From: a bacterium
GTDB taxonomy: Bacteria; Krumholzibacteriota; Krumholzibacteriia; Krumholzibacteriales; WJIX01
DNA length: 33,609 nucleotides
Reading direction: 5' to 3'
Assembly (NCBI GenBank): GCA_014730075.1
Contig: WJIX01000240.1
Span: forward strand, 1 to 33,609
Part shown: piece by piece, positions 4,736 through 24,114 of the stretch
Position numbering within the stretch: the first letter of the stretch is position 1
Layout of the letters: each line of letters starts with the position of its first letter
The notes under the pieces: generated by a model
Seen by the model: only the letters and a program-made list of their open reading frames with translations
Told to the model about the DNA's origin: nothing
The model's database searches: none
Translations under genes and position numbers: made by a program

Positions 4736-5863
4736 TCAGTTGCTCAGGGTCATCATTACCCGGATAGCCTCCTCGAAATCACTCCTGGTGATAACTCCCA
4801 GAAGACTCCCCTGGTTATTTACAACCGGGTATGATTCATACTTCCGGGCATTGATCAGATGAAAGACCCTTGCCGGGGAGCTGCTCAACCCTATCACATA
4901 ATCGGTAAGATTGGTGTTGATAACATCCTTTACTTCCAGCTCGGGCCTCTTCTCCGGATCAATCTTCTTGACGTCGCCGATAGTGACTATACCCAGCATT
5001 CTCCCATCAGAGACTACCGGGAAGAAATAGGAGTGGTACTTCTCGAAATATTCATCCATCAGGGTCTGCAGATCCATGGTCAGGCCTACCGTAACCACAT
5101 TCTTCCTGACCAGATCCGAGATATCAAGCCTCTTCATAACCTGGTGGTAGAGGATGGCTCCGTAACTTCTAATCGCTGCCTGCCTCAGAAAGGTACCTAT
5201 TATCATCAGCCAGATCCCGCCGATGAAGTTTCCGTAGAATATCAGGCTGAAGAGGCCGAGTCCTATGAGAAAAAGCGCGAAGTACTTGCCTATCCTGCTG
5301 GCTATATCGGTCGCCCTTACGATATTCTTCTTTCTGTACCAGATAATCGCCCGCAGGATCCTGCCCCCGTCCAGCGGAAAGCCGGGGACCATATTAAACA
5401 GGAAGATTACTATATTTATATAGACCAGCGATTCGAACAGTACCGACAGAGCCCGGATGGAGCGAAAAAGCAGAGAAAGCAGGAAGAACAGACCTGCCAG
5501 GACAAGGGTCATGGCCGGCCCGGCTGATGCCATTTTCAGCTCCACCACCGGGTCCTCCACCTCGTTCTCCATGTGGGCGACTCCACCGAACATGAACAGG
5601 GTTATCTTTCCTATAGGAAGGCCATTTTTCTTGGCCACCAGCGAATGGCTGAACTCGTGCAGCAGGATGGAAAGGAAGAGAAAAAGGGAAGCGAAGAAAG
5701 CCATTATCCACAGCTGGGTGGTTGAAAAGATCCCGGGATAGCTCTCCGAGTAGAACCCCGTGGCGAAACTCCAGGTCATCAGTACCAGTATGACCAGCCA
5801 GCTGATATGGACCTGTACCGGTATGCCCCAGAGTTTGAAAAGGTGAAGAGACCTCTTAAACAT
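4736..5863 (-). CDS. Site-2 protease (peptidase M50) with tandem C-terminal CBS domains
   Basis: HEFSH zinc motif, FNMVPGFPLDGGRILRA, multiple TM helices and two CBS repeats (FPVVSDGRMLGIVTIGD; YPVVNNQGSLLGVITRSD). Confidence 0.93.
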   Translation of the reverse strand: MFKRSLHLFKLWGIPVQVHISWLVILVLMTWSFATGFYSESYPGIFSTTQLWIMAFFASLFLFLSILLHEFSHSLVAKKNGLPIGKITLFMFGGVAHMENEVEDPVVELKMASAGPAMTLVLAGLFFLLSLLFRSIRALSVLFESLVYINIVIFLFNMVPGFPLDGGRILRAIIWYRKKNIVRATDIASRIGKYFALFLIGLGLFSLIFYGNFIGGIWLMIIGTFLRQAAIRSYGAILYHQVMKRLDISDLVRKNVVTVGLTMDLQTLMDEYFEKYHSYFFPVVSDGRMLGIVTIGDVKKIDPEKRPELEVKDVINTNLTDYVIGLSSSPARVFHLINARKYESYPVVNNQGSLLGVITRSDFEEAIRVMMTLSN

Positions 5864-5884: not shown

Positions 5885-6256
5885 TCAGGAAGATGGCTGC
5901 AGCTCATCCTCGCTGTAATAACCGGAGAAACGGTTGGATTCGTCGACTCTGATGAAGAGGGGGTACCTCCGGTCCTCGGTCCACGCGAAGGTCATTATAT
6001 CCACGGCATCGCCCTCCTTGACCAGGTGCGCGGCAGCTCCGTTCATACAGATAACCCCCGAACCACGCCTGCCCTTAATCACGTAGGTCTGTAATCTGTT
6101 GCCATTGGTCCTGTCCACCACCAGCACATTCTCCTGCTCGCTCAGGTCAGCCTTCTCGATGAGGTCTTCATCTATGGTTATACTACCCACGTACCTCAGG
6201 TCCGCCTGGGTAACCCTGGCGTTCATTATCATTGACTTGAGTACGAGTCTTTTCAT
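5885..6256 (-). CDS. panD: Aspartate 1-decarboxylase (PanD) family pyruvoyl proenzyme, divergent at Lys9, His11 and Ile86
   Basis: Colinear with PanD from ATG 6256 (GAGGT RBS). It keeps the YVG|SITID cleavage site, NGNRLQTY (R54/T57/Y58) and MNGAAAH (N72), but has KSMIM instead of KSKIH. Confidence 0.85.
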   Translation of the reverse strand: MKRLVLKSMIMNARVTQADLRYVGSITIDEDLIEKADLSEQENVLVVDRTNGNRLQTYVIKGRRGSGVICMNGAAAHLVKEGDAVDIMTFAWTEDRRYPLFIRVDESNRFSGYYSEDELQPSS

Positions 6257-6352
6257 CATACCACCTCGGGCCAGAATCACAACTTCTCCTCGCTATAATA
6301 TATCAAATTGTCACTCATGAAAACAAGTGCGGCGTTCCCCCTGCCGGAGTAA

Positions 6353-8068
6353 TTACAGCTTCATCCCCTCTATCTCGGTAAGATAACGCACGAAATGATT
6401 ATCTTCGTCAACCAGGATATTGCTGAAGTTGCCGCCCGTCTCGCTGGACCAGGTAAAGGCCATGATCCCTATCTCGTCGCCCTCCCGGATATGGTTTGCC
6501 ACCGCGCCGGAGGCAACCATCCTGCCGGAGCCCGGCCTGTCGGACACCGCAAAAGTCTCCAGCCTGGCCCCGTTGGTAGCATCCACTATCAGGATCTTCT
6601 CATACTGGTCGATATTTGCAAGTTTCATGATCTCCCCGTCTATCCTCAGGCAGTCGCTCATCTCCGGCTCGGTCCCGGTGATACTGGCCTTGTGGACCTT
6701 TGACTTGATTACCAGCCTGTCAGTGGTATCGGAGATGATGAACTTGGATTTGCCGGCGGGAGTCAGAGGTATCTCAGTGACTATCAGGAAGTTTACATGC
6801 ATATTGGCACCGCAGCAGTCCGATATCTTCTTCCTGAGGATACCGGTATTTTCATCTTTCCACCCCTGTTCCGGAACGATCCTGAAATCTATGGAGTTGA
6901 GCGCCTTCTGCTCTATCTGGAACCTCCTGATCCCGGGGACTGACCTGGACAGGCTGGTCCAGAAGAAACCGCCCACCGATTTTCCGTCCGGTGTCCTTAT
7001 GTTATCAAAGCTCCTGCCCTCCACCCGCTCCAGCAGGGGCAGCCCCCTGCCGCACTCGCATTTACGCCCGGCGGCTACAGCCACGTCCCCGGTCCGGTAA
7101 CGTATAAACGGCATGTACATATTCATCAGGTCGGTTACCACTATCTCACCCGCCTCCCCCGGACGGGCCGGCCTCCCCTCCTTATTTATCAGCTCCACCA
7201 GGTGTAGATCAGAGGCGATATGCAGGCCTCGATGCTCCTGGCACTCGAAGGCGACATCGGCAAACTCCCTGCTGCCGTAACTGTTATAGATCGGGGCGTT
7301 GAAGACCTCCTCAATCAGTTCTCTCTGCTTGGGATACAGGGTCTCCCCGCCTGTCACCACCGCCTCCGGCTTATGCAGGTTTATTGATTTCCTCCTGCAG
7401 TAACCGGCGAACTGGACCAGCGCGGATGGGTACCCGATTATCAGTTCAGGCTTGAAGGAGCGTTCCATGGCCGCGTATTTCTTCATCCTCGAATCAGACA
7501 TATCGAAAGTTGATATCAGCCTGGTATTATTGAAGTAGCTCCTGACTCTCCTGATTATACGTTCCTTCAGGCTCAGGTCCATATCCACACCCCAGAATTT
7601 CAGCTCCCTGGTACCTATATCAATCCCGGCTATCCGCAGCTGCCTCAGACGGTTGGCCCTCCGGAAAGGTATGGCGGCCCGGTCACAATAGAAATAGAGC
7701 GGAGCGCCGGTAGACCCGCCGGTACTGGAGGGATAACCGTTGCGAAGAGGGTCTCCGGTAATCAGCGACCGGGAATTGTCTTTTATCACATTCCTGGTCA
7801 GGTATGGTATCTTACGGAAATCATCCATATCCGAGATCTGGCGGACATTTATCCCCCTCCTCTTGAACAGCTCGCGGTAATAAGGAACATGAACTGACAC
7901 CTGTCTGAGAAGTTCCTGAAGCCTTCTCCACTGGAGGTCCTCGATTTCCCCGCTGGAGAGATACTGGTTGCCCTCCAGCTCCTCCAGGATAGCCAGGATC
8001 CGGTCCCTCTTGAATCCCCGGTAGATCGGATAGATCACATTTCTGACAAATGACGGAATCAGCGGCAT
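6353..8068 (-). CDS. PaaK/CapK-type (phenylacetate-CoA ligase-like) adenylate-forming enzyme fused to a C-terminal PanD-like domain
   Basis: ANL motifs VPYYRELF, STGGSTGAP, YGSREF, PFIRYRTGD, VEGRSFD and LTPAGK. The last ~123 aa (6353-6724) align to PanD: KSKVH, IVDATNGARLET, GSG, GDEI. Start placed at ATG 8068; the ORF caller gives 8089. Confidence 0.88.
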   Translation of the reverse strand: MPLIPSFVRNVIYPIYRGFKRDRILAILEELEGNQYLSSGEIEDLQWRRLQELLRQVSVHVPYYRELFKRRGINVRQISDMDDFRKIPYLTRNVIKDNSRSLITGDPLRNGYPSSTGGSTGAPLYFYCDRAAIPFRRANRLRQLRIAGIDIGTRELKFWGVDMDLSLKERIIRRVRSYFNNTRLISTFDMSDSRMKKYAAMERSFKPELIIGYPSALVQFAGYCRRKSINLHKPEAVVTGGETLYPKQRELIEEVFNAPIYNSYGSREFADVAFECQEHRGLHIASDLHLVELINKEGRPARPGEAGEIVVTDLMNMYMPFIRYRTGDVAVAAGRKCECGRGLPLLERVEGRSFDNIRTPDGKSVGGFFWTSLSRSVPGIRRFQIEQKALNSIDFRIVPEQGWKDENTGILRKKISDCCGANMHVNFLIVTEIPLTPAGKSKFIISDTTDRLVIKSKVHKASITGTEPEMSDCLRIDGEIMKLANIDQYEKILIVDATNGARLETFAVSDRPGSGRMVASGAVANHIREGDEIGIMAFTWSSETGGNFSNILVDEDNHFVRYLTEIEGMKL

Positions 8069-8585
8069 AACAAATTCCCGGTTAAACAAACATTACTTAA
8101 GAGTATATTTTAAGTTATAAAAGTTCATTGTCCAGTTGAAATATTTCAGGGCAGAGCGTCCTCGGCAATTTCCTTCCGGCCTCATTCTTTCCTCCCGGCG
8201 CTGTATTCCCCACCGCAGAAAAATATTCCCCCTTAACTGAGCTCTCACTTCCAGCGGTTGCAGCCGGAACAGAAAAGGCCCAATAATATATTATACAGCA
8301 ATCTGTTAGGTGCGCCAACATCCCGCCGCTCAGGCATCCAGAGTGGCAGTGATCTTGCGTAAACCGATATCTCCCGAAGGGGCATGATACGCATTATCCT
8401 CCGGGATCTCCGGTGATATATTTTCAGCTGCCGGAGATAAAAACACTCTTTGCCAACCGGGGTAAAGAATGATAATAGTTATACCAGCCGCCATGATAAC
8501 TCCGGCAGCCATACCGGATCTATCGGCGCGGGGAACGGAGCTGTAGAAGCAGCCGGTTCAGCAACCTATCGACTGCGGGTGAAAA

Positions 8586-10055
8586 TTGAGTGGATACACA
8601 CTGAGAAAACATGCCTTCATCCTGTTTGTGGGAAAGTTCCTGGCTACCGCCCTGATGTTTGTGGTTCCGCTGGTACTGGTAAGGGTTCTCTCCAAGAATG
8701 AATTCGGGATCTACAAGCAGGCAATGCTCCTGGTAACGTTCTTCACCTCCATGCTCCAGTTCGGGATCACCCAGTCCCTCTATTTCTTCTACTCGCATGG
8801 GGATGACAACAGGAAGCTGATATCCCAGACCTTCTATATCTTCCTTTTCATCGCCGCCCTCTTCTTCCTGCTGTACTGGGCCTTTTCAGGATATATCCCT
8901 TCGCTGATAAAGGGGCTGGATACTCAGGGGGTGATCAGGAACACCGGGATCTACATAGGGCTCTTCTTTCTCACATTCTTCTTCGAGACCCTGCTGATAC
9001 TGGAACGGCAGCCGAAGAAACTGCTGCTGTTTCTGGTACTGGACAACAGCGCCAGGACAGGATTTGCCATAATCTTCGCCTTTATATATAACGATGTCTC
9101 CATGATCCTTTTCGGCCTGATTCTATACGGGCTGATCAAACTCGCCGTGGTAGTGATATATCTGTCGGCCAATTACGGTTTCCCCATGGGTATGAGGGGG
9201 ATCAGCCGGGCGGATGTGATGAAGCAGGTCAGGTATGCCGTCCCCCTGGGAGGTGGCAGGCTGATCGGAGATATAGGAAGGAAAGCGGACAGGTTCATAC
9301 TGACCGCCTTCCTGAGCGCCTCCGGTTACGCGGTATACACGGTTGGCACTCTCAGAATGCCTCTGGATATAGCCTATCTCTCCATCGGGAATACAGCCCT
9401 TCCCAGGATCACCGAGTACTACAGGGAGGGGCGCAAAGACCTGATGGCGCAGCTCTGGCACAAGGTGATCTTTTACTACTGCCTGTTCACCATCCCCATC
9501 GTGATATTCTGCGAGGGGTTCGCCGATGAGATCATCACCTTCCTCTTCACCGACGAATATATCGAGGCTGCGGCGGTATTCAGAGTTTATGTACTGATAT
9601 ATCTCGGTTATATGATGGCCCGCGGATCCATACTGAAGGCAAGCAACAATACCAGGTACGCCTTCAGCGCCAATCTCTACTCCATGATATCGGGAGTTGC
9701 GCTGGGGATAGTGCTGATCAGGTATTTTGGTATTATGGGAGGTGCCGCCTCCGCCGTTCTGGCCTCCTCGGTCAATGTTTTCTATCAGGTCTATAAATCA
9801 AAGAAGATACTCAACCTCTCATTCGGGAAGTGGCTCCCCTGGAAGAGGATGATCATTATCACACTCCTGTCGGCCGCCGCCATGGTTCCAGCCCTGGGGA
9901 TCAGGCTGCTTACAGGAGGGAACATATACAGATTAATGGCTGGATTCGCAATATACTCGCTGGTCCTGATACCGCTGATGAACTGGTTCAGGCTTATCAG
10001 TATCTCCAGTATCACGTCTAAGATCAGAGAGAAGATAGAGGGAGTCAAGAGATGA
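8586..10055 (+). CDS. Wzx-type oligosaccharide flippase / polysaccharide biosynthesis export protein (MOP superfamily)
   Basis: About 12-14 TM helices, N-terminal PLVLVRVLSKNEFGIY, and YAVPL...DRFILTAFL...YAVY. TTG start. Confidence 0.85.
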   Translation: MSGYTLRKHAFILFVGKFLATALMFVVPLVLVRVLSKNEFGIYKQAMLLVTFFTSMLQFGITQSLYFFYSHGDDNRKLISQTFYIFLFIAALFFLLYWAFSGYIPSLIKGLDTQGVIRNTGIYIGLFFLTFFFETLLILERQPKKLLLFLVLDNSARTGFAIIFAFIYNDVSMILFGLILYGLIKLAVVVIYLSANYGFPMGMRGISRADVMKQVRYAVPLGGGRLIGDIGRKADRFILTAFLSASGYAVYTVGTLRMPLDIAYLSIGNTALPRITEYYREGRKDLMAQLWHKVIFYYCLFTIPIVIFCEGFADEIITFLFTDEYIEAAAVFRVYVLIYLGYMMARGSILKASNNTRYAFSANLYSMISGVALGIVLIRYFGIMGGAASAVLASSVNVFYQVYKSKKILNLSFGKWLPWKRMIIITLLSAAAMVPALGIRLLTGGNIYRLMAGFAIYSLVLIPLMNWFRLISISSITSKIREKIEGVKR

Positions 10056-10825
10056 TAATAGTTCTTCTGGGAATGCATAAGTCGGGAACCACTCTGCTGT
10101 CCAGGATGCTTCATGAATCGGGGATCAATATGTGCGAGGACCCCACCCGGATCAGTTCCTATGATGCCGGAAACAAATATGAGAGGCTTGAATTCCTGAT
10201 TTACAATACCGCCATGCTGGATATCAGGATATCCACGTTCAGCTCCGACATCGTGGAGACCGCGAACGACCTCTCCATCTCCAGGCACCCCCGGACCCTG
10301 GCCGGGCTGCTGGAAACCAGGATAGAGGAACTGAGCTCCGAGCACCCTGCCTGGGGGTTCAAGGACCCCCGCACCTGCATGACCTACCGCGCCTGGAGGG
10401 AACACCTGCCCCCCCACCGGGTCCTGGTCTCCTTCAGAAATCCATATGAAGTGGCGGCACATCTGACCAGGTCGGTGAGGAATATAAGGATGCTTAAGAG
10501 AATCGGAAGGACCGCCGGCGGGCTTAACTCCTGGTACCTGCACAACCGGAATATCCTGGAGTACTACCGGGAGAACGGCTCTGATTTCTTCTTCATAGAC
10601 TACAACAGATTCATGAGCGAGGAGGGCGACGGATATATTGACAGGATCTCCGAATTCTGCCAGATCGAAATCAGTGACCTGAGAGACAGGGACCTCTACC
10701 GTAACCGGATGGAAACCCTTACCCTGGCTCAGAAGATTGACCGGGGTGTCGGTTCGGTCTTTATCCGTGGAAAGGTGGAGCGGGTATACCGCCAGCTCAG
10801 AGAAATAGAAAGGGCTCAGTTCTGA
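10052..10825 (+). CDS. Sulfotransferase family protein
   Basis: 5'-PAPS-binding loop VLLGMHKSGTTLLSRML, plus WGFKDPRT and FRNPYEVA. ATGA overlap with wzx implies translational coupling. Confidence 0.85.
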   Translation: MIIVLLGMHKSGTTLLSRMLHESGINMCEDPTRISSYDAGNKYERLEFLIYNTAMLDIRISTFSSDIVETANDLSISRHPRTLAGLLETRIEELSSEHPAWGFKDPRTCMTYRAWREHLPPHRVLVSFRNPYEVAAHLTRSVRNIRMLKRIGRTAGGLNSWYLHNRNILEYYRENGSDFFFIDYNRFMSEEGDGYIDRISEFCQIEISDLRDRDLYRNRMETLTLAQKIDRGVGSVFIRGKVERVYRQLREIERAQF

Positions 10826-12541: not shown

Positions 12542-15500
12542 CTACTCCAGGCAGGAGAACCATCCGCCCTCATGAATGATTATTTCATCCGGGCGCGAGA
12601 CCGGACCGGTAATCCGGTATTGGTATTCGGCGTCGATCCTCATCCGGCAGGTTGCTACCCCGCCGGGGATTCCCAGCTTCAGGAAAGGGCCTGAGTAGCG
12701 GGCAAAGTAATATGGTGATGGGACTTCCTCAGGTATCTTTATACTTCCTGCGTATCCCCCGGTGGGCAGAAAGAGAAACAGCTTCCGGTCAAAGAAATTA
12801 TTACGGCAGATTATCACCCCCCTGTCAGAAAGGGCGCTGAGCCTGAACGGCACCTTCATGCCATCATTTACCGCCGCTTCCAGCCCCGACGCGGGCACAA
12901 AGCCCGCCCTGCCCCCCTGGTTGATCATCAGACCCCTGTCCGGGTCCCACGCCGTTATAACGGTTCTCCGGTCCATTCCGCATACTGCGATAAGTGCGGG
13001 ATTGATGCCGGTTTCCATCCTCTCCGTGAATATTTTCCGCTCCGGGTGATAGATTATAATCAGGCCTCTGTCCCCGTCAGATATATACAGCAGATCTCCA
13101 TCCGAAGCGATATCGGAAGGTGTTAATCCATAGCTGCCCAGGTCCAGGATACGGCCGGGACCTTCCTCCGACGAGATCTCGAGGACTTCCCGGTTGTTAT
13201 TATCAAAAGCGAATACCCTTTCCCCGCAAACGGCGAATTCACTTATATTCCTGAGCGGATTGCCGGGAGAGGGCCTTGCTATCCTCTCGGCTCCGTCCAG
13301 GAAATAGCGGACCCCCGCCGGCCCGATCTTTACCTGCCGGTCACCGTAGAGAAATACAGGGTTTCCCCCTGCCACCTCCTCCATGGAGCATTCTCCGGCG
13401 TAATCAAGATATGCCGGATTCATTCTAACCTCTATCGTTTCACCGGACACCCGGAATACTCTCTCTGCTACCGAGGGTAGAAAACCTCTTCCGGAAAAGA
13501 CGAAGATATATCGCTTGCCGCTCCGCAGGCCCATGAGCTTCCGCACCGGCCCCTGGTATATCACCGTATTCAGATCGCTCATTACGGTGAGGTTGATATC
13601 TGACAGCGCCGCTCCGGCTACCTCAATATTGACCCTGACATCATCGCGCAGGTAGGCGAACTCCGCCGGCCCGCGCAGTCTATCCCTGTTCTGCATCTTA
13701 ACTGACCATGGATGAAGAAGGGTGGGCGGCTGCACACAGGCGCTCCAGAGCTCAAGTGAGCGCTCCAGCTGATCGAGGATCAGCCCGCGGGTAAAATTGC
13801 CTTCACTCTCGCCGGCTCTCAGCATATCGTACCTTACGCAGAGAGGGCCTATCTCCGGGCCGGAACATTCCGCCCCTGCAGCTTTCTTTTCCCAACCGGC
13901 TTCTCTGAGAAGCGGGAGCATCCAATTCATTCCATCTGCTGCCTCTGTCAGGCAGGCGCTCCGGGCCAGAAGATTGTGGTCTGCACCCTCCCTGGCCTGG
14001 TAACCGATTATATAAGCGGCCCTGGGATCTACCGAACTGATCCGGCTCAATTCCTCCCTGGACCGGTCCAGGAACCTTCCCCTTACCTGTCTTTCCATTA
14101 CCGCCCGGTAATACCTGGCCTCATTCCGGTAACGGGCGGGCCAGTGATCTATCCGGTCACCGGCCAGTATCTCTTCCAGCACCCTGTCCAGGGCATCGCG
14201 GTTGTCCGGAGAGCCGTTTCCGTCGGTGTCTCCCAGGGGGGCCGAGTTGATCAGGGAGAATGCCCGGAGGAGGGATAGCTCGGCTTCGGCCTCATCACCC
14301 GGTGCCGGCATCCTGTCCCCGGCAACCCTGAAAAGCATATATGCCGCGGTGTATAGAATTCTTCTCTTTCTCTCCTGTGAACTGCTGAGCCTGGGAATGC
14401 AGTTGGCCATGGTCATGGCTGCGGATCCTGCCTTTCTGCATTCTTCACTGCTGCAGGCCGCACTGTAACGTGATAGCAGAAATTCAAGATTCGATTCGGA
14501 GGGGAATCTCTTCCCCGACCGGCTGCCTTTATCCGCCAGCGGCATCATCCGGGAGAGAAGCTCCAGCCACCTGTACTCCGGCCTATCCGGAATCGCCCTT
14601 CCCGGCTGCTCCGCTGACAGAATATCACAGTAGGCCCTTCGGAGGTGCCGGCGGTGTGACAGAACCGAATCGATTCCGCCGCCGTTGACACTCCGGGGAC
14701 TGCTTCTGAAGAGACCGGCGGGCAGATTCTCCAGCAGGCGGCTGCCGGAGAAGAATTTATTCTTGTCCTTCTGAAGATAGCCGTTCATCGCGGACAGGTC
14801 GCTCCAGAGTCTCGCCTCCCCGGTCAGCCCTCCCGCTCCGCCGGCAGGAAGATTGGCTATCAGGGCCCTGCTGGCTATGATAATATCACTGCGGCCCCCC
14901 TCCAGCCGGTCGATATCAAGCCCGCCGAAGAGATTGAATCTTCCGGCCAGCTGTTCCTGATTAAGGCGGGCGAGCTCCCCCCTGTTTTTGTCGATCCACT
15001 GATTTACCCTTCCCGCCGCCCTCTGAAGGAGCGAAAGATCCGCCAGGTACCTGGCCTGCCCTGCTGCCGGAGTACCCTCCAGCTTTGCGGCCACCTGCTC
15101 AGCATACTCCCTTATCTTCGCAAATTCAGAATCCAGCTGTTCCATAGTCATTCTCTCCAGGGCGGGTATCCCCGCCGGGAGCTGACCGGAACCGGGCTGA
15201 TCCTCACTTTTCATAAAGTGGTAAGCTCTGGCTAAACGGGCTTTCAGCCACCTGCTATAGAGGTGGTAGAAATGAGCGGCCTTCCCCACAGCTTCCCGTA
15301 ATTTCAGACCTGCGAATATCTCTTCCGCTTCGGAGGCCGCGCGGTATCCCTCCCCGCTCGGCATGAGCGAATCAAGTGCCTCCTTAGCCCTGGCCAGGAC
15401 CGCGTAACCGCGCAGGAACCGGCGCTGGTACTCCAACCCACGGCTGTCAGGCCGGTCCAGGATCTCAAGCGCCCGATCCAGCCCGGCAGCTTCTCCCCCG

Positions 15501-15964
15501 CTGTGGTATGAGCGTATTCCGCACCAGGCCACCATATACGCGGCAAAATCCTTCTTGGCCGGATCCAATCCAGATTCCCCGCTAAGGCTGACTTCCCGGA
15601 ACAGCTTGGCTGCGACGGCAAAATCGGCAGCCTCGCCTGTGGCTATTCCCCTGATATAATAGAGATATGCCTGGATATATTTCAGGGTCCAGACCTGGTA
15701 TTCGGAGAGGCGCCCCGCTGACGAAAGAACACTGTCCAGCTCTGATATCCGTACCTCCATATCCGCTTCCGGAACCCTGGACGGGTCCTCCACGAAGGAG
15801 CCGACCATCCTGACCGATCTCTCCATAACCCCGGAGATATCCTCCTGGCATAAAGCGGAAGTGCCCGTAAGCAGGGAACCCGCCAGAATGATGCTCATAA
15901 CCGCCATCCGGAAAAACCGTGTGGCATTGCCGGCAGAGTTGGTATTCAGTTCCCTCAATATCAT
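12542..15964 (-). CDS. Large exported hypothetical protein: alpha-helical (TPR-like) region, PEGA/Ig-like domain, C-terminal NHL-like beta-propeller
   Basis: Signal-like N-terminus. Helical repeats with AxY/F motifs (YIQAYLYY, AAYMVAW, EARYYRA). A beta domain near 13415-13650. Propeller blades such as PSDIASDGDLLYISD and VFAFDNNNREVLEI. Last gene of the operon. Confidence 0.6.
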   Translation of the reverse strand: MILRELNTNSAGNATRFFRMAVMSIILAGSLLTGTSALCQEDISGVMERSVRMVGSFVEDPSRVPEADMEVRISELDSVLSSAGRLSEYQVWTLKYIQAYLYYIRGIATGEAADFAVAAKLFREVSLSGESGLDPAKKDFAAYMVAWCGIRSYHSGGEAAGLDRALEILDRPDSRGLEYQRRFLRGYAVLARAKEALDSLMPSGEGYRAASEAEEIFAGLKLREAVGKAAHFYHLYSRWLKARLARAYHFMKSEDQPGSGQLPAGIPALERMTMEQLDSEFAKIREYAEQVAAKLEGTPAAGQARYLADLSLLQRAAGRVNQWIDKNRGELARLNQEQLAGRFNLFGGLDIDRLEGGRSDIIIASRALIANLPAGGAGGLTGEARLWSDLSAMNGYLQKDKNKFFSGSRLLENLPAGLFRSSPRSVNGGGIDSVLSHRRHLRRAYCDILSAEQPGRAIPDRPEYRWLELLSRMMPLADKGSRSGKRFPSESNLEFLLSRYSAACSSEECRKAGSAAMTMANCIPRLSSSQERKRRILYTAAYMLFRVAGDRMPAPGDEAEAELSLLRAFSLINSAPLGDTDGNGSPDNRDALDRVLEEILAGDRIDHWPARYRNEARYYRAVMERQVRGRFLDRSREELSRISSVDPRAAYIIGYQAREGADHNLLARSACLTEAADGMNWMLPLLREAGWEKKAAGAECSGPEIGPLCVRYDMLRAGESEGNFTRGLILDQLERSLELWSACVQPPTLLHPWSVKMQNRDRLRGPAEFAYLRDDVRVNIEVAGAALSDINLTVMSDLNTVIYQGPVRKLMGLRSGKRYIFVFSGRGFLPSVAERVFRVSGETIEVRMNPAYLDYAGECSMEEVAGGNPVFLYGDRQVKIGPAGVRYFLDGAERIARPSPGNPLRNISEFAVCGERVFAFDNNNREVLEISSEEGPGRILDLGSYGLTPSDIASDGDLLYISDGDRGLIIIYHPERKIFTERMETGINPALIAVCGMDRRTVITAWDPDRGLMINQGGRAGFVPASGLEAAVNDGMKVPFRLSALSDRGVIICRNNFFDRKLFLFLPTGGYAGSIKIPEEVPSPYYFARYSGPFLKLGIPGGVATCRMRIDAEYQYRITGPVSRPDEIIIHEGGWFSCLE

Positions 15965-15977
15965 CAGCTCCTCTCTC

Positions 15978-16691
15978 CTATAGATTGATAAAATCGTCGG
16001 AGACGAAATCCTTGAATCTCTTATTGTATTTCCTGTATATCCTGTCGGTCCCCTCGGTGAAATTTACCGTGGGAGGCCGCCAGGGGTTGCGGTAGATCAC
16101 CGGTATCAGGTTGACGGCATGCCTCCCCACTCCGGTGGGCCCATAGAATACGCTTCCCGAGCTGCTTCTGATCCCCTCTATTTCCGTTACATTTATGGCG
16201 GTCCTTCTCGATTCCGGGTAGAAAACCACCTCGAATCTGAAACTCTCTATGGGGCATACGTAATAATCTTCCAGCGTGTTTATCCACTGCTCGACCGCTT
16301 TCTTAAGTCCGGGCGGAGCCTTTTCAGGGAGTTCGAAATAAATCTCCAGCTCCCGGTAATCCCTGTTCACCACCTCAACGGAGAGGCATATGGAGGACCC
16401 TATTCCTGAAAACTCCCTGAGCTCGGTGACCGGCATTTTCTCGTAATCCCGTACATGGGGATGGACCACTACCGGACCTCCCAGCAGGTTGATTCCGGCG
16501 GTCCCGAATTCCTCCCGGTCATAGATGGAGCTGTATTTGAAGACTGGCCGGGTATTTATCTCGGCAGGCAAAAACGAGAAGATCAGAACGGCCGCCAGGA
16601 CCGCTCCCGCGATTGCGGGGACGAACCTTACCAGCTGCCTGACAGATCTCTCCAGGTATATCGCTCCCTTTTCCTTCATGAAATCAGCCAT
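15978..16691 (-). CDS. Single-pass membrane protein with periplasmic domain; possible divergent TonB-like energy transducer
   Basis: One N-terminal TM (FVPAIAGAVLAAVLIFSFL). It lies directly after exbD, overlapping it by 8 nt. Weak TonB_C-like segment (CLSVEVV...PPGLKKAVEQW...FEVVF). The function is inferred from position. Confidence 0.45.
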   Translation of the reverse strand: MADFMKEKGAIYLERSVRQLVRFVPAIAGAVLAAVLIFSFLPAEINTRPVFKYSSIYDREEFGTAGINLLGGPVVVHPHVRDYEKMPVTELREFSGIGSSICLSVEVVNRDYRELEIYFELPEKAPPGLKKAVEQWINTLEDYYVCPIESFRFEVVFYPESRRTAINVTEIEGIRSSSGSVFYGPTGVGRHAVNLIPVIYRNPWRPPTVNFTEGTDRIYRKYNKRFKDFVSDDFINL

Positions 16692-17325
16692 CTTTTCTGA
16701 TCACCCTGCCTTCCAGGTCCAGGTTTACCATGCTCAGGCGGTGGAGGAGCTGGTCGATCGAATCCATGGTAATCACCTCATGCCTGGAGACCCCTTCCTT
16801 TCTGCAGACCCTGATCACCCGGTGCACGGAAGAGAACCTTTCGCCACCACCGCATAGAATTACCGCCCTGTCCGGGTTGTTCCTTCTCAGGGACTCGGCC
16901 AGGTGTTCGGGGTTCTGGTACAGGCCGCTCTCCACCAGAAAGTAATCCAGCCTCATCCTGATATCATCTATCTTTGACTGGATACTTCCTCCCCCTTTCA
17001 GTATCCGCTCGATCTCTCCCGAAAGCCCTTCAAAATCAAGGTCGGGGCTGTGTGAATTGGCGGCCCCGCTCATCTGGAGATAGCAGGTCCTGGAGAGACC
17101 GCCGCTTCCAACCGGGAGAACCGCTATAAGAGCCTTTCCCCCCGCCTTATGCCGGCTGTCCATCATTTCGATACCATAGGTACCCTCCAGGTCTTCGCTG
17201 CCGCCCAGGGCCGCTGAAATATTAAGGGTAACCAGGAAGAATATCAGAAGAAGAAAAATCACGTCGATAAGTGGCACCAGCTCGATTCTTCTTCTTGATT
17301 CACCTGTCTCGAGGTTACTGCCCAT
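16684..17325 (-). CDS. exbD: ExbD/TolR family biopolymer transporter subunit (copy 2)
   Basis: IELVPLIDVIFLLLIFFLV with the essential TM Asp. C-terminal AVILCG...FSSVHRVIRVCRKEGV ExbD-like fold. Confidence 0.82.
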   Translation of the reverse strand: MGSNLETGESRRRIELVPLIDVIFLLLIFFLVTLNISAALGGSEDLEGTYGIEMMDSRHKAGGKALIAVLPVGSGGLSRTCYLQMSGAANSHSPDLDFEGLSGEIERILKGGGSIQSKIDDIRMRLDYFLVESGLYQNPEHLAESLRRNNPDRAVILCGGGERFSSVHRVIRVCRKEGVSRHEVITMDSIDQLLHRLSMVNLDLEGRVIRKDG

Positions 17326-17357
17326 TTATATCCTGTCCTCCATATATTTACTTATCC

Positions 17358-18071
17358 TTATACCTTCATGGCGTGAATCCGTATCCCGCCGATATCCACA
17401 CCCCTTCTCTCCAGAACCCGGAAAGCCGACTTGACAAAGAACATATACATATCCTCCGGCATCCTGATGTGGATCCCCGGACTGTCCCCGCCACCTATCA
17501 ATCTACTCATCGAATTGATCTTTCGCTCCAGCTCCTCTTCCTCCCGCTGGCTCAGGGCCCGGGGAGCAGCCGGCAGAAAATCGGGATAGAACAGGAAGAG
17601 TTCCCTGGCTTTTTCAATTATCAGTTCACCGGACATACCCTCTTCCAGCTTCCTTATCAGTCCCTCCGCGCTCTCCCTGAAGCCTGATATATCGGAATAT
17701 CCCAACCCCCCGCATACCGATACCATGAATCCATCCTCGGGGACCGGCTGAAAAACTCTCTCCATTCCAAGCTTCGCTGACAGCTCCATGAACGAACTTC
17801 TGAGATCCTCTATCATATCCCTTTTCATCCCATTCCCTTCGGCCAGGTCGAAGACATCGATCATAAGATAGCTCCCCTGAATCCTGTTGGGATTCTCAAT
17901 CACCGGCAACCTGGACTGCTGCTCTCCCTTTCCTTCGCCGGTATTGCCGCTTCCCAGGTTGGTAGACATGGTCACCAGAAAGAATATCAGGAGAATGAAT
18001 ATTATGTCGATCAGCGGGGTCTTGCCCGGCTCTCTTCTTGATATCCTGGTATTCATCGAAAATCTGTTCAT
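17358..18071 (-). CDS. exbD: ExbD/TolR family biopolymer transporter subunit (copy 1) with enlarged periplasmic domain
   Basis: TPLIDIIFILLIFFLVT with the essential Asp. ATG 18071 lies 1 nt after the stop of the upstream exbB. The ORF caller's start at 18182 overlaps exbB. Confidence 0.8.
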   Translation of the reverse strand: MNRFSMNTRISRREPGKTPLIDIIFILLIFFLVTMSTNLGSGNTGEGKGEQQSRLPVIENPNRIQGSYLMIDVFDLAEGNGMKRDMIEDLRSSFMELSAKLGMERVFQPVPEDGFMVSVCGGLGYSDISGFRESAEGLIRKLEEGMSGELIIEKARELFLFYPDFLPAAPRALSQREEEELERKINSMSRLIGGGDSPGIHIRMPEDMYMFFVKSAFRVLERRGVDIGGIRIHAMKV

Positions 18072-18072
18072 A

Positions 18073-19395
18073 CTAAATCCTACCCCCCGCGGCGGCTCTA
18101 GCCAGACTCTCCTCAGATTTCTTCTCCACTCCGGATTCGGGCGAAACTGTACCCTCCCGGATGATATAATCTTCCTGCACAACCTGCGTGAGTGTATTCT
18201 CCACCGCGGAATCCACCCTGAGGGCGATCCTGGATCTTCTGAACTGAATCAGGTAGTAGAAAAGAAGAAAGAGTATCCCAACTATCAGGCCGAAAACGGT
18301 GGTGTTCAGAGCCAGATGGATCCCGCCGGAGAGATTCTCCAGCACCGCCCTGTTCTGCCCGGTTACAATAGTTTTTATCTTCAGATAGAGCCCCCCGAAA
18401 GAGTCGGAGATACCGATCACCGTGCCCAGGAGTCCCACCATCGGAGCCAGTACCCCGAAGCAGCGGATCATCTCTGCCGAGATCACCCAGCTCAACATCC
18501 TCCCCCCAGGTTCCAGCTCCCGGCTGAGCTGCCTGTTAACCCCCGAGTACATCCTGCTTCTCAATCTTTCGAGCTCGCGGCAGTTTCTGGCCGAATCGGC
18601 GCCGCCGGGATTCGAATGCAGCCTCCTGCGGTACTCATCCACGCCGGCCCTTATCTCCATCCGACTGAGCACAGGACATCCCTCCGTGGCCCTCTGCGCC
18701 TCCTCCAGCCCATCCGCATCCTTCACCTTTTCTGATGCGGCCGCCAGGTTCTCGAATTCACTCCCGTATAACCGGCGAAGGTGAACGTAAACGCTGAAAA
18801 GCCCCCATATAAGAATAATTATCAGGAGCGAGGCGATAACCCCTCCGTCGGAAACCGTCCTCCGGAGGCCAGCCAGGTTCTCCCGCACCGCTTTCCTGCT
18901 GCCCGGATATACCGTATCAGGCCTGGCCGTTATCTCCGCGGTCCCCAGCATGGGATCGCGGTTAAATCTTCTGCTGAACGGAGCCGATATGTCTCGATAT
19001 TCACCGCTTTCTTCCAGGGATACCGAAGCTGAAACGATCTCGCCCCGGTTGATGGTAAAATCGCCCAGGGATCTTCGGATCTTCAGATCACCTGAGTTTC
19101 CGACCGGGGACCCGTTGAAATAAACCGTGAAGGAGCACCCTTCCGGCTTCCGGATATCCCGGAAAAGAGGCTGGGCGAGGTCACCGCTCTCAATCTCCCG
19201 CCAGTTAAGGACCTCTTTGAGCTTCCACTCCAGCCTCAGCACACCGCTCCCGTCATTACGTTCGATTCCGGCATTGGTAATCTCCACTACGCAGTCCCTG
19301 CCCGCCCCTGAAGGTGATCCCGGCAGGGCCGCGAGCAGGATGGCCGCGAGAATCAAGCCCCCGGCCAATCCCTGATTTCTTTTTGATCTTCTCAT
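18073..19395 (-). CDS. MotA/TolQ/ExbB proton channel family protein with N-terminal exported beta-rich domain
   Basis: Motifs APMVGLLGTVIGI and LSGGIHLALNTTVFGLIVGI. Signal peptide and ~150-aa extracytoplasmic domain precede TM1. Confidence 0.88.
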   Translation of the reverse strand: MRRSKRNQGLAGGLILAAILLAALPGSPSGAGRDCVVEITNAGIERNDGSGVLRLEWKLKEVLNWREIESGDLAQPLFRDIRKPEGCSFTVYFNGSPVGNSGDLKIRRSLGDFTINRGEIVSASVSLEESGEYRDISAPFSRRFNRDPMLGTAEITARPDTVYPGSRKAVRENLAGLRRTVSDGGVIASLLIIILIWGLFSVYVHLRRLYGSEFENLAAASEKVKDADGLEEAQRATEGCPVLSRMEIRAGVDEYRRRLHSNPGGADSARNCRELERLRSRMYSGVNRQLSRELEPGGRMLSWVISAEMIRCFGVLAPMVGLLGTVIGISDSFGGLYLKIKTIVTGQNRAVLENLSGGIHLALNTTVFGLIVGILFLLFYYLIQFRRSRIALRVDSAVENTLTQVVQEDYIIREGTVSPESGVEKKSEESLARAAAGGRI

Positions 19396-19400
19396 CCCGG

Positions 19401-20981
19401 CTACGCCTCGTTGGTTATATCCACTATAAAGTTCTCTATGCTTGCCGCTTTCTTGCTGATGGTATTCTTGAACAGGTAGTACATGGTGAATGAAAGTATA
19501 CCCAGCACCAGCCCCACTATGGTGGTGGAGAGAGCGACATTGATCTCCCCTGAAAGCTCACTAATTATCTTGCTCTGGCTGTGAAGCCCGCCCAGTTTGC
19601 CAAAGGCGGTGGATATTCCCACCACGGTCCCGAACAGCCCTACCAGAGGGCTGATGCTGCCAATAGTCCAGAGTTTGTCCACAATCCTGTTCCTGCGGTC
19701 CACCTTGGTAACGATGACCCTGTCTATGGCCCTGTCTATCTCCTGAGAGGCCCACCAGTTATTCTGGTTGATCAGGTGGTTGTGCAGGCCGGCCTTGAGT
19801 ATCTCGAAAAGATCGAATCTCCTGTCAGCGATACCGCTGATGATCTCCTTGATCCTGGGCCTGGCATAGTCGTGCCATTCCCCGCGGGAGTCCGGGCCGG
19901 TGCAGATATCGGCAAAATCTTTCATATCATCCACTTCGACTCTCACCCTCTTCTCTTCCTGCCCGGTTATATCGTTACCGGAGCTGGCGGCCAGGCGTTC
20001 CACGTCCACCGATTTGCCCAGCACCTCTTTCACGAAGGGATAGTCAACAGCTTTCCTGATGATCTCCCCGGCACTTAGTTCCCGGCCTTCCCGGAGTCCG
20101 GCAACGAACTGCCGGATCTGCTCCTTCTGGGGGTCGGCCGCGCCGGTCTTCAGAATGATGCTGACCCAGCGGGCTCTCGCATCGGCCACCTTCCCGCCGA
20201 ACATCTGATTTACATCGGTAAATGGTATTATCCCGGCCAGCCGGCTGTCACCCGGTGACCAGGCGCTCATTGATGATTTTATGGCGCTGTAGAGAAACCA
20301 GAGAAACAGCAGGAATATCACCCCGAACACATACTGGAAAAGGTGCTCGTAGTGGTCCATATTATGCCAGATGGTGTAGACTATCTCCCCGATACCCTTG
20401 CCCGCAGGTTTTCCCATGGAGGGGGGTATCTCAGTCAATTCTATTCTCCCGGCATTAATCCCTCTTGCCGCCACCAGCCGGGATGGCCGGTCATGAGGCA
20501 ACTGGTATCCCTCCCTGAGGGAGGTCATTGCCCTGGCGCTGATCTCTATCCTGGGCCTTCCCTCACCCCTGCCCGGCTTGACCACCGTGAAATCAAGATA
20601 ATTGGGGCCGGCTCCGGGGTCCACGGCACCACCGGTGTAATTCCAGCTGTCCACAATCCCTGATACGTATTCCCACATCTCAGCGGGTCCGCTGCGCAGG
20701 CTCTCTACCAGAATGGCAGTCCTGTAAACATCACCGCTTTCTCCAATATAGGCCCGGACTGTTACACGCCCCGGACTCATTGAATTCAAATCCAATTCAT
20801 CCTGCGCGGGAGGGTCCAGCCTGAAATCCGCGGCTGCCAGGCCGGAGGACTGAACAACTAATATCGCCGTCAGAACCAGCGGCACCAGAACCCGGGTGTA
20901 AACTCGCGTCGTTTTCATCTTAACCTGCCTTCTCCGATTCTCAGCGGCCCGCCGTACCGGCTTTCTGACCCGCGGCATCAT
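19401..20981 (-). CDS. MotA/TolQ/ExbB proton channel family protein with N-terminal exported domain and enlarged cytoplasmic domain
   Basis: Motifs SPLVGLFGTVVGI and LSGEINVALSTTIVGLVLGI. Signal peptide, then TM1 YVFGVIFLLFLWFLY. Alternative start at ATG 20918. Confidence 0.88.
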   Translation of the reverse strand: MMPRVRKPVRRAAENRRRQVKMKTTRVYTRVLVPLVLTAILVVQSSGLAAADFRLDPPAQDELDLNSMSPGRVTVRAYIGESGDVYRTAILVESLRSGPAEMWEYVSGIVDSWNYTGGAVDPGAGPNYLDFTVVKPGRGEGRPRIEISARAMTSLREGYQLPHDRPSRLVAARGINAGRIELTEIPPSMGKPAGKGIGEIVYTIWHNMDHYEHLFQYVFGVIFLLFLWFLYSAIKSSMSAWSPGDSRLAGIIPFTDVNQMFGGKVADARARWVSIILKTGAADPQKEQIRQFVAGLREGRELSAGEIIRKAVDYPFVKEVLGKSVDVERLAASSGNDITGQEEKRVRVEVDDMKDFADICTGPDSRGEWHDYARPRIKEIISGIADRRFDLFEILKAGLHNHLINQNNWWASQEIDRAIDRVIVTKVDRRNRIVDKLWTIGSISPLVGLFGTVVGISTAFGKLGGLHSQSKIISELSGEINVALSTTIVGLVLGILSFTMYYLFKNTISKKAASIENFIVDITNEA

Positions 20982-20982
20982 G

Positions 20983-23073
20983 CTACCTGGGCCAGAAGAT
21001 CCCGTCGGCGCCGCTGTTAGTTCTGTAGAATTCGACTATCTTGCCCGCGGCCTCCCTGAGCTGTTCTCCGGTGGCCGCACCGTCTATATGAGCGCTTAGA
21101 ATATTGAATGCCGATCCCCCGGTAAATCTCTCCAGCGGATCGGAGAGCATCTCCCTGATCCGCTCCCTCTCCATCTCGCCGCCTCTTACGATCTGAATGC
21201 AGTTCTTCAGGAGAATGGCGTCGTCGGCGATTATTCCGTCAGGGATGAAAGGGGTTGCCGGGTAGTATGAAAGGGCGAACACCCCCGATTCGTTCCGCCC
21301 GATAACCTGGTCCAGAAGATCCACATCTTTTTCTCTTATGCCCAGCAGGAACTCCAGGTATACCCTCAGGTAAGCTTCATTTCTGATTCCAGGCCGATCA
21401 GTCCGTAAGACCTTTTTGAGCGAGGCTGTCTCGACGGGGTCCGAAAGGGCCAGGAAATAGTGCCTGTCCCATTCGCTGAACGCCCTGTTCCTCGAGGCCA
21501 GCCCCTTTTCTGACACCACCTCATCCACCTCATCTCCCCTTCCGGCCAGTATCAGGTCTGTAATATAGTAGCGCAGTGCTTCGATGTTATCTGTCCTGGT
21601 TAATCTATCCAGCCTCCCGGCGCAGTCATCAAGAAAACTGCCGAATTCGCCCCGCCAGTTGCGGAGGCTCTCCTGCAGGTTGTCACTCCCACCGGAAGGG
21701 ACCTTGTTCTCGATAACCAGTTCCCGGTAATCCTCCACCGCTCTCCTGATCCTGAACAGCCAACCGGTGATCCCCAGTATGAATTCATCATATCGGTTGT
21801 GATTCTCGGAGCCGGCCGCCAAACTGTTCCTGAGTTCTCTTCCGATCCTGTAATAACCCCTCCTGCTGCTTCCGGATGCCGCGCTGTCCGGGTGGGCCAG
21901 GGCCGGGTCCCTGGGATAATTCATGAACCTTCTTATCAGGTTGCTCGGGGCAGCCGATCCAAGATCGGCCCCCGGCTCCTGCACCTCGCTCTCCGGCGAT
22001 CCGGGGCCGAATACCATCCGCAGAGAGAGGAAATTGGCCGATGAGAGAACCGGGTGAGGCCTCTGAGCGAAATCCAGGCCTATGAATCCTTTCCATCCGA
22101 GAAGTGATATATCACAGCCCCGGAGTCCGAATCCCCACGAGTAACCGCTCTCATCGCCGCTCTCCGCGGAGAGGTTGACTCCTCCCCTCATGGAGAGCAT
22201 AAAATCTCCGTACAGGGGAAGCTGGTACTCGCATCCGATTCTGTGGTCCTCCTCGCGCCATGATGACAGGACCCTGTCGAACTGGTATGAGGCGACAAGC
22301 TTTCCCGGTACCGAAGGTATCCTTATATCGCTGTTGCTGAGCCCCAGGCTGAATGAATTGGGGTAATCCTGTTCACTCCTGAGCAGCTCCTCGCCGGTTG
22401 CGGCGTGATATACCGCTCCAAACCTCCAGGGCATGAGATGCCTTATGGGAACAATCCCCAGAAGAGACCACCTGGGTGGATTTATCAGCTGGGCCATTAT
22501 CCCGAAATCCGCTCCGGCGCCCCAGTCACTGTATCCGTTGAGTTCATGGTTGAAAGCGATAAGGTTGACGCCTGCGGCCAGCCTGCCCAGATGGCTTATC
22601 CGGTCGTATGCCGCCGAGGCAGAGAGAGCCATCTGACTGTCGTCGAAGCTTCCTCCCAGAAACCGGTCGTCCGCGCTGTATGGTTCGAATCCTTCCATCC
22701 TGAATCCCAGCAGGCCCAGCCCGAAAGCAAGCTTGGACTCCCTGTCCGGGAATCCGTAACAGGGATAACCAGCCGCTCCGTAGAGCAGCCGGGAGTCCAG
22801 ATGCAGTTCGGTCTGCATGAACTGCAGGGAAGGGCGGCTCAGCTGAGCCAGACCGGCCGGGTTCCAGAATACAGCGGTGGCATCGTCCGCCAGCGCGGTA
22901 TAGGCCCCTCCCATTGCCATCGCCCTGGCTCCCGCTCCATACCTAAGGAATTCTCCTCCGCTGCCGGCTTCTCCACTTCCGGCACGCGCGGCCCCGGCTC
23001 CTGCCATAATGGCCAGCGACAGGAGTACAGGGAGGATAAATCCGGTCCTTGACATAAACTTTCTTCTATTCAT
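20983..23073 (-). CDS. PorV/PorQ (UPF0164, FadL-like) outer-membrane beta-barrel fused to a ~340-aa C-terminal helical domain
   Basis: Signature FLRYGAGARAMAMGGAYTALADDATAVFWNPAGLAQL. Alternating beta-strands end at FLSLRMVFG (~22005). ATG 23073 overlaps the upstream stop (ATGA). Confidence 0.85.
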   Translation of the reverse strand: MNRRKFMSRTGFILPVLLSLAIMAGAGAARAGSGEAGSGGEFLRYGAGARAMAMGGAYTALADDATAVFWNPAGLAQLSRPSLQFMQTELHLDSRLLYGAAGYPCYGFPDRESKLAFGLGLLGFRMEGFEPYSADDRFLGGSFDDSQMALSASAAYDRISHLGRLAAGVNLIAFNHELNGYSDWGAGADFGIMAQLINPPRWSLLGIVPIRHLMPWRFGAVYHAATGEELLRSEQDYPNSFSLGLSNSDIRIPSVPGKLVASYQFDRVLSSWREEDHRIGCEYQLPLYGDFMLSMRGGVNLSAESGDESGYSWGFGLRGCDISLLGWKGFIGLDFAQRPHPVLSSANFLSLRMVFGPGSPESEVQEPGADLGSAAPSNLIRRFMNYPRDPALAHPDSAASGSSRRGYYRIGRELRNSLAAGSENHNRYDEFILGITGWLFRIRRAVEDYRELVIENKVPSGGSDNLQESLRNWRGEFGSFLDDCAGRLDRLTRTDNIEALRYYITDLILAGRGDEVDEVVSEKGLASRNRAFSEWDRHYFLALSDPVETASLKKVLRTDRPGIRNEAYLRVYLEFLLGIREKDVDLLDQVIGRNESGVFALSYYPATPFIPDGIIADDAILLKNCIQIVRGGEMERERIREMLSDPLERFTGGSAFNILSAHIDGAATGEQLREAAGKIVEFYRTNSGADGIFWPR

Positions 23074-24098: not shown

Positions 24099-24114
24099 AA
24101 CGGTCAACTCCTTG

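Follow-up and report, generated by a model that had tools for sequence, protein, structure and literature searches.

Aspartate decarboxylase (PanD), a drug target, is the textbook case of a homotetramer that processes itself. Members of the canonical family (PF02261, TIGR00223; structures 2c45 and 1aw8) form a homotetramer in which each chain carries both halves of an active site that lies between subunits. Here we describe a locus on contig WJIX01000240.1 of a bacterium of the order Krumholzibacteriales (phylum Krumholzibacteriota; assembly GCA_014730075.1; "the window" is the whole stretch analysed, 33,609 nucleotides (nt)) in which these halves are divided between two genes. One encodes a stand-alone PanD, called A, and the other, upstream of it, a CapK/PaaK-type adenylate-forming ligase to which a C-terminal, PanD-like domain, called B, is fused. 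The fold, the family and the inter-subunit placement of the sites in the tetramer are shared with the canonical enzyme, and A has its Gly24-Ser25 and its cis residues. Lys9 and His11, which in canonical PanD stand on the pyruvoyl chain, are by contrast absent from the pyruvoyl chain A. We favour, with a confidence slightly better than even, a heteromeric PanD in which a pyruvoyl chain and a pyruvoyl-less chain, the latter tethered to the ligase, each supply part of the active site.

Several described systems resemble this arrangement in part. The fungal V-ATPase subunits Vma3 and Vma11 arose by duplication of a ring subunit, after which reciprocal degenerative losses at the interfaces locked both copies into the ring; those losses touch binding interfaces only, whereas here a catalytic site would be split. 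PanZ (PanM) is a GNAT-fold protein and forms no part of the ring. It is the second protein needed for PanD activity in Enterobacteria, and in the sections of PMC3975893 and PMC4537548 that deal with it PanZ is not described as a PanD paralogue. The closest precedent found is the pair of AdoMetDC and its prozyme in Trypanosoma brucei, a pyruvoyl decarboxylase that is active only in complex with a dead paralogue, as is proposed here, but this pair is eukaryotic, has another fold and no fusion partner and, as far as the account in PMC5201418 goes, works allosterically, with the prozyme relieving autoinhibition without supplying site residues. The ligase part shares the family motifs of CapK/PaaK ligases (PF27533; PaaK structure 4r1l) and, as a further likeness, adjoins exopolysaccharide genes; it differs in that the CapK/PaaK relatives from outside the order are without a PanD domain among the matches listed.

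No heteromeric or ligase-fused PanD was found in the literature searched, which included searches with the name of the phylum and in which PanD is treated as one gene and one ring; this agrees with the preliminary description of the stretch, whose author knew of no heteromeric PanD. If the proposal is true, the pair would be a bacterial case of a homomer that became a hard-to-revert heteromer by duplication and complementary degenerative mutations. As this process is usually argued from ancestral reconstructions, a natural lineage would be a clean example of it.

The features on which the argument depends are the following, in coordinates of the window:

6353..8068, minus strand: fusion gene, CapK/PaaK-type adenylate-forming ligase with C-terminal PanD-like domain, 571 amino acids (aa)
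6725..8068, minus strand: ligase part of the fusion gene (578-aa open reading frame (ORF), residues 8-455)
6353..6724, minus strand: B, PanD-like domain without pyruvoyl site (PF02261, alignment)
6260..6352, minus strand: spacer from the stop codon of B to the start of A, 93-96 nt, with GAGGTGG shortly 5' of the ATG
5885..6259, minus strand: A, stand-alone PanD (PF02261, alignment)

The longest ORF of the fusion gene (6353..8089, minus strand, 578 aa) begins with TTG 8089, but ATG 8068 is the likely start, because the closest relatives (P0001-P0007) are 571 aa long and the family consensus starts at Met8 of this ORF. For A, the longest ORF covers 5885..6280 on the minus strand (131 aa), and the likeliest start is ATG 6259 or 6256, just after GAGGTGG. 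A scan for consensus matches only gave a promoter-like site at 8134-8107 (minus strand) and no terminator on the minus strand between the fusion gene and A.

Both PanD units are recognised by the Pfam model Asp_decarbox (PF02261; cut-off 25), A with 132.8 bits and B (fusion residues 459-565) with 74 bits. The panD equivalog TIGR00223 accepts A (118.9 against a cut-off of 106) and fails on B (56.8). As noted before, both domains align with PanD without gaps, which is borne out with Mycobacterium tuberculosis PanD (2c45): residues 9-106 of A correspond to PanD 1-98 and residues 3-93 of B to PanD 3-93. With gap-free alignment over at least the first 90 residues, PanD numbering can be used directly for both.

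Positions 7-11 of A read K-S-M-I-M, with Lys9 and His11 each replaced by Met, and Ile86 is replaced by Asp; Tyr22, Gly24-Ser25, Arg54, Thr57, Tyr58, Asn72 and Gly73-Ala74-Ala75 are retained. The same positions of B read K-S-K-V-H, so that Lys9 and His11 are kept, as are Arg54 and Thr57, while Tyr22, Gly24-Ser25, Tyr58, Asn72 and Ala75 have become Met22, Asp24-Cys25, Phe58, Ser72 and Val75. The codons in question are:

A, minus strand: Met9 6230-6232; Met11 6224-6226; Gly24 6185-6187; Ser25 6182-6184; Asp86 5999-6001
B, minus strand: Lys9 6698-6700; His11 6692-6694; Asp24 6653-6655; Cys25 6650-6652

Every substitution on which the preliminary description had based its claim of two PanD paralogues with complementary losses can be read in the codons; the replacement of Ile86 by Asp in A, the retention of Arg54 in A and the loss of Tyr22 in B are additions to it. 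Lys9, His11, Arg54 and Tyr58 are given as strictly conserved in PanD in the relevant part of PMC3314653. They never occur all in one chain here, A being without Lys9 and His11 and B without Tyr58, and the complete set is present only across A and B together.

These losses acquire meaning from the geometry of the site. According to the structural passages of PMC3314653, Lys9 and Arg54 belong to the neighbouring subunit (trans) and Pyr25, Thr57 and Tyr58 to the pyruvoyl chain (cis), and Lys9 forms an ion pair with the alpha-carboxylate of the substrate. The corresponding passage of PMC6969166 also assigns Arg54 to the neighbour and the backbone of Ala74/Ala75 to the pyruvoyl chain. The earlier statement that Lys9, His11 and Arg54 all come from the neighbour thus holds for Lys9 and Arg54, and for His11 the placement is derived from its strand and from contacts in a predicted A2B2 complex. 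In this model, residue 58 of each chain is contacted by residues 4-6 and 88-90 of its neighbour, and since residues 9, 11 and 86 share the strands of the latter (2-14 and 82-94), they would lie on the trans face. On this assignment A is changed on its trans face (9, 11 and 86) with no change in cis, and B is changed on its cis face at 22, 24, 25, 58, 72 and 75.

The reciprocal pattern is not confined to the window. Residues of A were read in 48 copies (47 species genomes and the metagenome contig L162) and those of B in 45 domains (43 from as many species genomes, one more from an additional copy in genome G043, and one from L162), with the following result:

Position 9: A, Met 47, Val 1; B, Lys 45
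Position 11: A, Leu 36, Met 10, Val 1, His 1; B, His 45
Position 22: A, Tyr 48; B, Tyr in 0 of 45
Position 24: A, Gly 48; B, Asp 45
Position 25: A, Ser 48; B, Cys 39, Ser 4, Gly 2
Position 54: A, Arg 48; B, Arg 45
Position 57: A, Thr 48; B, Thr 37, Ala 8
Position 58: A, Tyr 48; B, Phe 41, Ile 2, Val 1, Thr 1
Position 72: A, Asn 48; B, Cys 29, Ser 9, Gly 5, Ala 1, Thr 1
Position 86: A, Asp 48; B, Ile 17, Ser 15, Gly 13

Homologous loci thus keep the pattern proposed for the window, with no exception at the key sites. The reciprocal losses are not due to chance, as Lys9, His11, Tyr22, Gly24, Ser25, Arg54, Thr57 and Tyr58 are all present in 160 of 160 ordinary PanDs, made up of 20 from sister orders or families, 61 from other phyla (the loci with at least 95 aligned residues out of 71; the remaining 10 were dropped) and 79 from metagenome contigs. 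PanD of the Met9 type is seen only where a B domain exists (genome G034, treated below, apart), and the 160 others have both Lys9 and His11. The trans residues of B are invariant though its overall identity drops to about 55%, which implies that selection acts on a dead domain at just those positions that a neighbouring chain would use. A separate observation concerns L162 (3001-3348), a divergent metagenome lineage in which A has Met9 and Asp86 yet retains His11; judging by this sequence, the loss of Lys9 may have preceded that of His11.

The pair is also restricted in its distribution. Among 208 genomes of the phylum searched, full-length relatives of the fusion occur only in the window's own order (families f1-f3) among the matches listed, and the ligase matches from other families end where the ligase ends among the matches listed (132 weaker ones are unlisted). 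Relatives of the fusion in databases also bear the name Krumholzibacteriota. The hits to PF02261 are distributed as follows:

Window's order (f1-f3 and genome G000): 48 of 52 genomes, nearly always exactly two hits
Family f5: 8 of 12 genomes, one stand-alone hit each
Family f8: 21 of 23 genomes, one stand-alone hit each
Family f9: 12 of 13 genomes, one stand-alone hit each
Family f4: 0 of 7 genomes
Family f6: 0 of 10 genomes
Family f7: 0 of 91 genomes

Sister families therefore have one canonical PanD, and the window's order has the A/B pair with no third copy. Co-occurrence, which had been named as a check, is found in 46 of the 48 genomes of the order that have at least one PF02261 hit. In G058, G065 and G076, which are among the 46, B is cut by Ns or by the end of a contig; in the remaining two of the 48, B lies at a contig end (G063) or A alone is present (G034). 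A second ligase-B fusion was observed on another contig of G043 (L250, G043:C148:61356-61679), a genome with a single A gene. Scans of sequence collections returned mostly ordinary PanDs: one fused locus was among the 80 kept from genome contigs with the fusion alignment, and likewise one among 80 metagenome loci with the alignment of A.

A adjoins B, at most 350 nt downstream, in 39 of 44 pairs, and in the other five the genes are farther apart or on separate contigs. In all of the first 29 loci that hold both genes B ends in a stop codon, followed by a gap of 14-345 nt in 28 and of 1171 nt in one. Long frames of, for example, 691-893 aa had raised the prospect of an A-B fusion of the "Rosetta stone" kind, which was rejected because B stops and a gap or a change of frame precedes A; the DNA being G+C-rich, the long frames around A are chance frames.

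A tree of 161 PanD units places all A sequences in one clade (support of 98 in the Shimodaira-Hasegawa-like approximate likelihood ratio test) and all B sequences in another (100). At 123 columns it leaves open whether the two are sisters, and their common origin is therefore argued from derived residues: Trp92 is common to A (47 of 48) and B (32 of 32) and is lacking or rare in the 81 ordinary PanDs of the alignment, and Ser93 and a C-terminal tail N-R-F-x-R-Y are derived and shared as well. The row L027 (Cytophagales) stood beside B after re-rooting, to which no meaning is attached. As far as sequences can tell, this is consistent with a single duplication in the order's ancestor and complementary losses thereafter.

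The mechanism that we propose starts from such a pair of paralogues of one ancestral PanD, which would assemble as a mixed ring. Its simplest form would be ABAB, with the composition (ligase-B)2.A2. At each interface, one chain would supply the cis set (Tyr22, Ser25 converted to pyruvoyl, Thr57, Tyr58, Asn72 and the backbone of 73-75) and the next chain the trans set (Lys9, His11, Arg54 and residue 86). Since A has kept the cis set and Arg54, and B only the trans set, only the A(cis)/B(trans) interfaces would be complete; these would be the aspartate decarboxylase sites that make beta-alanine, and A alone would be inactive. The B(cis)/A(trans) interfaces would be closed, more hydrophobic pseudo-sites, to which A would contribute K9M and H11L/M and B would contribute Y58F, N72C/S, S25C and A75V. 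As the replacements in B cis (Phe, Cys, Val) and in A trans (Met, Leu) are the more hydrophobic ones, the residues suggest that the unused pocket has been filled in. More speculatively, the invariant Asp24 of B and the retained Arg54 and Asp86 of A might form a salt bridge and so mimic a bound carboxylate.

Binding of A to B was modelled by a complex prediction with two A and two B domains, each with a 26-row alignment and paired by locus. The median of the interface score ipSAE was 0.89, against 0.02 for the best of three controls; in the calibration of the method, 58 of 80 solved complexes and 2 of 110 mismatched pairs came up to that mark. The runs share at least 92% of contacts, the predicted local distance difference test (pLDDT) of the partner is at least 90, and each A contacts both B copies, which gives an alternating ABAB ring. 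As PanD tetramers have been solved, this pass may be a memory of that fold, and the model is best taken as compatibility with the PanD ring, a likeness rather than binding. It reproduces the alternation of the A2B2 ring put forward earlier; the stoichiometry, and the inactivity of each protein on its own, we infer.

The passing model would also suit a reading in which B binds A solely as a maturation or allosteric factor in the manner of PanZ or the prozyme and lends no catalytic residues. The precedents speak for it, as a dead paralogue activates the pyruvoyl decarboxylase of T. brucei (as described in PMC5201418) and PanZ is required for the activation of PanD in Escherichia coli (as described in PMC3975893). 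Such a factor would, however, give no reason why Lys9, His11 and Arg54 are invariant in B, nor why residues of this set were lost from A, and we regard this reading as improbable.

The metabolic setting permits a functional pair. In the window's genome, which is 82% complete, panB and panC are neighbours, coaBC is present, and the only PF02261 units are A and B. This is consistent with the A/B pair being a working aspartate decarboxylase in the slot of the ordinary PanD of sister lineages, though the setting is permissive only. NCBI-type pipelines label these genes "aspartate 1-decarboxylase" or "phenylacetate-CoA ligase", and with such labels metabolic reconstructions for the phylum may over-call or under-call beta-alanine synthesis.

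Several points weigh against an obligate heteromeric enzyme. Of the 208 genomes of the phylum, 203 have panC, and in the three families without any PanD it occurs in 106 of 108, which implies other routes to beta-alanine in the phylum, so that the pair is not necessarily the housekeeping source. Such routes would also leave room for the A/B pair to be a decaying duplicate without joint function. This is very improbable, as about 46 genomes have undamaged copies of both genes, at 55-90% identity; many columns are invariant, purifying selection is evident, and no internal stop codons were seen in A or B of those genomes. Further, His11 and residue 86 are assigned to the trans face by strand geometry and the model, and A keeps Arg54 although this is a trans residue. 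The role of Lys9 is given in the relevant part of PMC3314653 only as ion pairing with the carboxylate of the substrate. Covariation between A and B was dropped as an independent line of support: Met at A11 accompanies Ser at B72 in 8 of 9 genomes, compared with 1 of 34 with other residues at A11, but this pair ranks only 130th among the 5785 column pairs scanned, where the top pairs track phylogeny and the signal between the proteins does not rise above it.

The strongest evidence against an obligate heteromer comes from G034, a genome of the same order (94% complete), because it shows that A can persist without B. Its locus (L261, G034:C31:3500-12500) reads glycosyltransferase of family GT4, A, M50/CBS gene; the GT4 gene, whose product is 62% identical to its orthologue, is directly upstream of the A-type gene, and neither a B domain nor the ligase was found at the locus or anywhere in the assembly. 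The A protein of G034 has Met9, Leu11, Asp86 and all cis residues and looks unimpaired, with one deviation among 48 positions whose conservation in the other A copies is 95% or more, and a terminal branch of 0.11 (median 0.04, maximum 0.37). The claim that the proteins form an obligate hetero-oligomer is therefore supported in part, by the conserved reciprocal pattern, while this genome argues against "obligate". G034 also has a pyridoxal-phosphate (PLP)-dependent group-II decarboxylase (PF00282), as do 12 of the 52 in-order genomes, so that A could be a relic there; the decarboxylase may have made the loss of B tolerable, or may have had no part in it.

G034 speaks for the main rival reading, in which A would be an autonomous homotetrameric decarboxylase, with Lys9 and His11 dispensable or with a substrate altered by Met9, Leu11 and Asp86, and B a non-catalytic PanD-fold module that serves to oligomerise the CapK ligase or to bind a dicarboxylate. 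The conservation of Met9 (47 of 48) and Asp86 (48 of 48) in A is not that of drifting or degenerate positions and could also reflect a new function of a tetramer of A alone, A passes the panD equivalog of NCBI, and the genes are non-adjacent in five of the 44 pairs. Against this stand the invariance of Lys9 and His11 in all 160 other PanDs, the occurrence of the Met9 type only alongside B in the other genomes, and the fact that B retains precisely what A has lost; an autonomous A also leaves the decayed cis side and the frozen trans side of B unexplained. We consider it possible but rather unlikely, and the split-site heteromer remains the reading that we prefer.

What the split-site heteromer would be for is bound up with the ligase. 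Among solved structures, PaaK is the best match to the ligase part (4r1l, E-value 3.6e-38), and the relatives of the fusion are matched by PF27533, named CapK_C by the Atlas. The motifs SSTGGSTG, YGSRE, RYRTGD and a C-terminal GK (Lys447) show little or no variation among 30 relatives, and we take them to be the ligase (ANL) motifs, the first as the glycine-rich loop. The Pfam model AMP-binding stays below its cut-off on the fusion (22.6 against 29.9), and all NCBIfam ligase equivalogs are far below theirs. Among them are the models of the phenylacetate-CoA ligase PaaK (TIGR02155, 87.7 against 646.3; NF041878, 98.6 against 700). A role as substitute pantothenate synthetase was rejected, since panC and panB are already in the genome. 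An AlphaFold2 model of the fusion, made from an alignment of the 30 relatives, has a mean pLDDT of 86 and a predicted TM-score of 0.73, and only about four lower-confidence residues separate the last ligase strand (451-453) from the first PanD strand (458-469). A decarboxylase formed with B would thus be tethered to the mobile C-terminal subdomain of the ligase.

The gene for a PgaB-like polysaccharide deacetylase is gone from the G034 locus together with ligase-B, and just weak paralogues are present in the assembly. This joint loss suggests that the deacetylase and ligase-B act together on a glycan as one functional module. As glycan genes (GT4, deacetylase, Wzx, sulfotransferase) flank the locus, one may go further and envisage a (CapK-ligase-B)2.A2 metabolon in which beta-alanine would be passed straight to the ligase and amide-linked to a sugar of the exopolysaccharide that the PgaB-like de-N-acetylase next door would have freed, although this is a doubtful extension that we put forward tentatively. 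Exosortase-A polysaccharide loci contain pairs of a ligase and a PLP-decarboxylase, of which such a metabolon would be the pyruvoyl counterpart. If the ligase does use beta-alanine, this would be a new mode of exopolysaccharide decoration.

The glycan genes differ between branches of the order. Family f3 has the GT4 glycosyltransferase and the PgaB-like deacetylase upstream of the fusion gene (L157 8794-11241, minus strand; L160 3987-6375, plus strand); the best NCBIfam match of the former is a glycosyltransferase of the PEP-CTERM/XrtA system, below its cut-off, and the PgaB-like match is also below. The window itself has, divergent from the fusion gene, a Wzx/MurJ-type flippase and a sulfotransferase (8586-10825, plus strand), an upstream context shared only with G080, a genome of the same genus.

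Downstream of A the context is conserved more widely, by the third gene of the locus:

4736..5863, minus strand: M50 peptidase with a pair of CBS domains, conserved neighbour downstream of A

This M50/CBS gene follows A in 24 of 31 loci, as well as in L162 and L261-L263; the seven loci without it comprise four with no usable sequence 3' of A and three with another gene. It is absent beside canonical panD in the six sister-order loci. The peptidase is site-2-protease-like, in the window as in loci L087-L111.

The remainder of the window holds genes of other kinds. Two ORFs of 1140 and 237 aa (12542-16691, minus strand) have no Pfam match at E <= 0.001. There are also four consecutive ExbB/ExbD-like genes (MotA/TolQ, ExbD/TolR; 16684-20981, minus strand), two of which are unusually long (440 and 526 aa). 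A 1555-aa protein with fn3, FlgD_ig and Por_Secre_tail domains, the last a signal for sorting by the type IX secretion system, is encoded at 23070-28782 (minus strand) with an adjoining 345-aa FlgD_ig protein; these features are in keeping with an organism of the FCB group.

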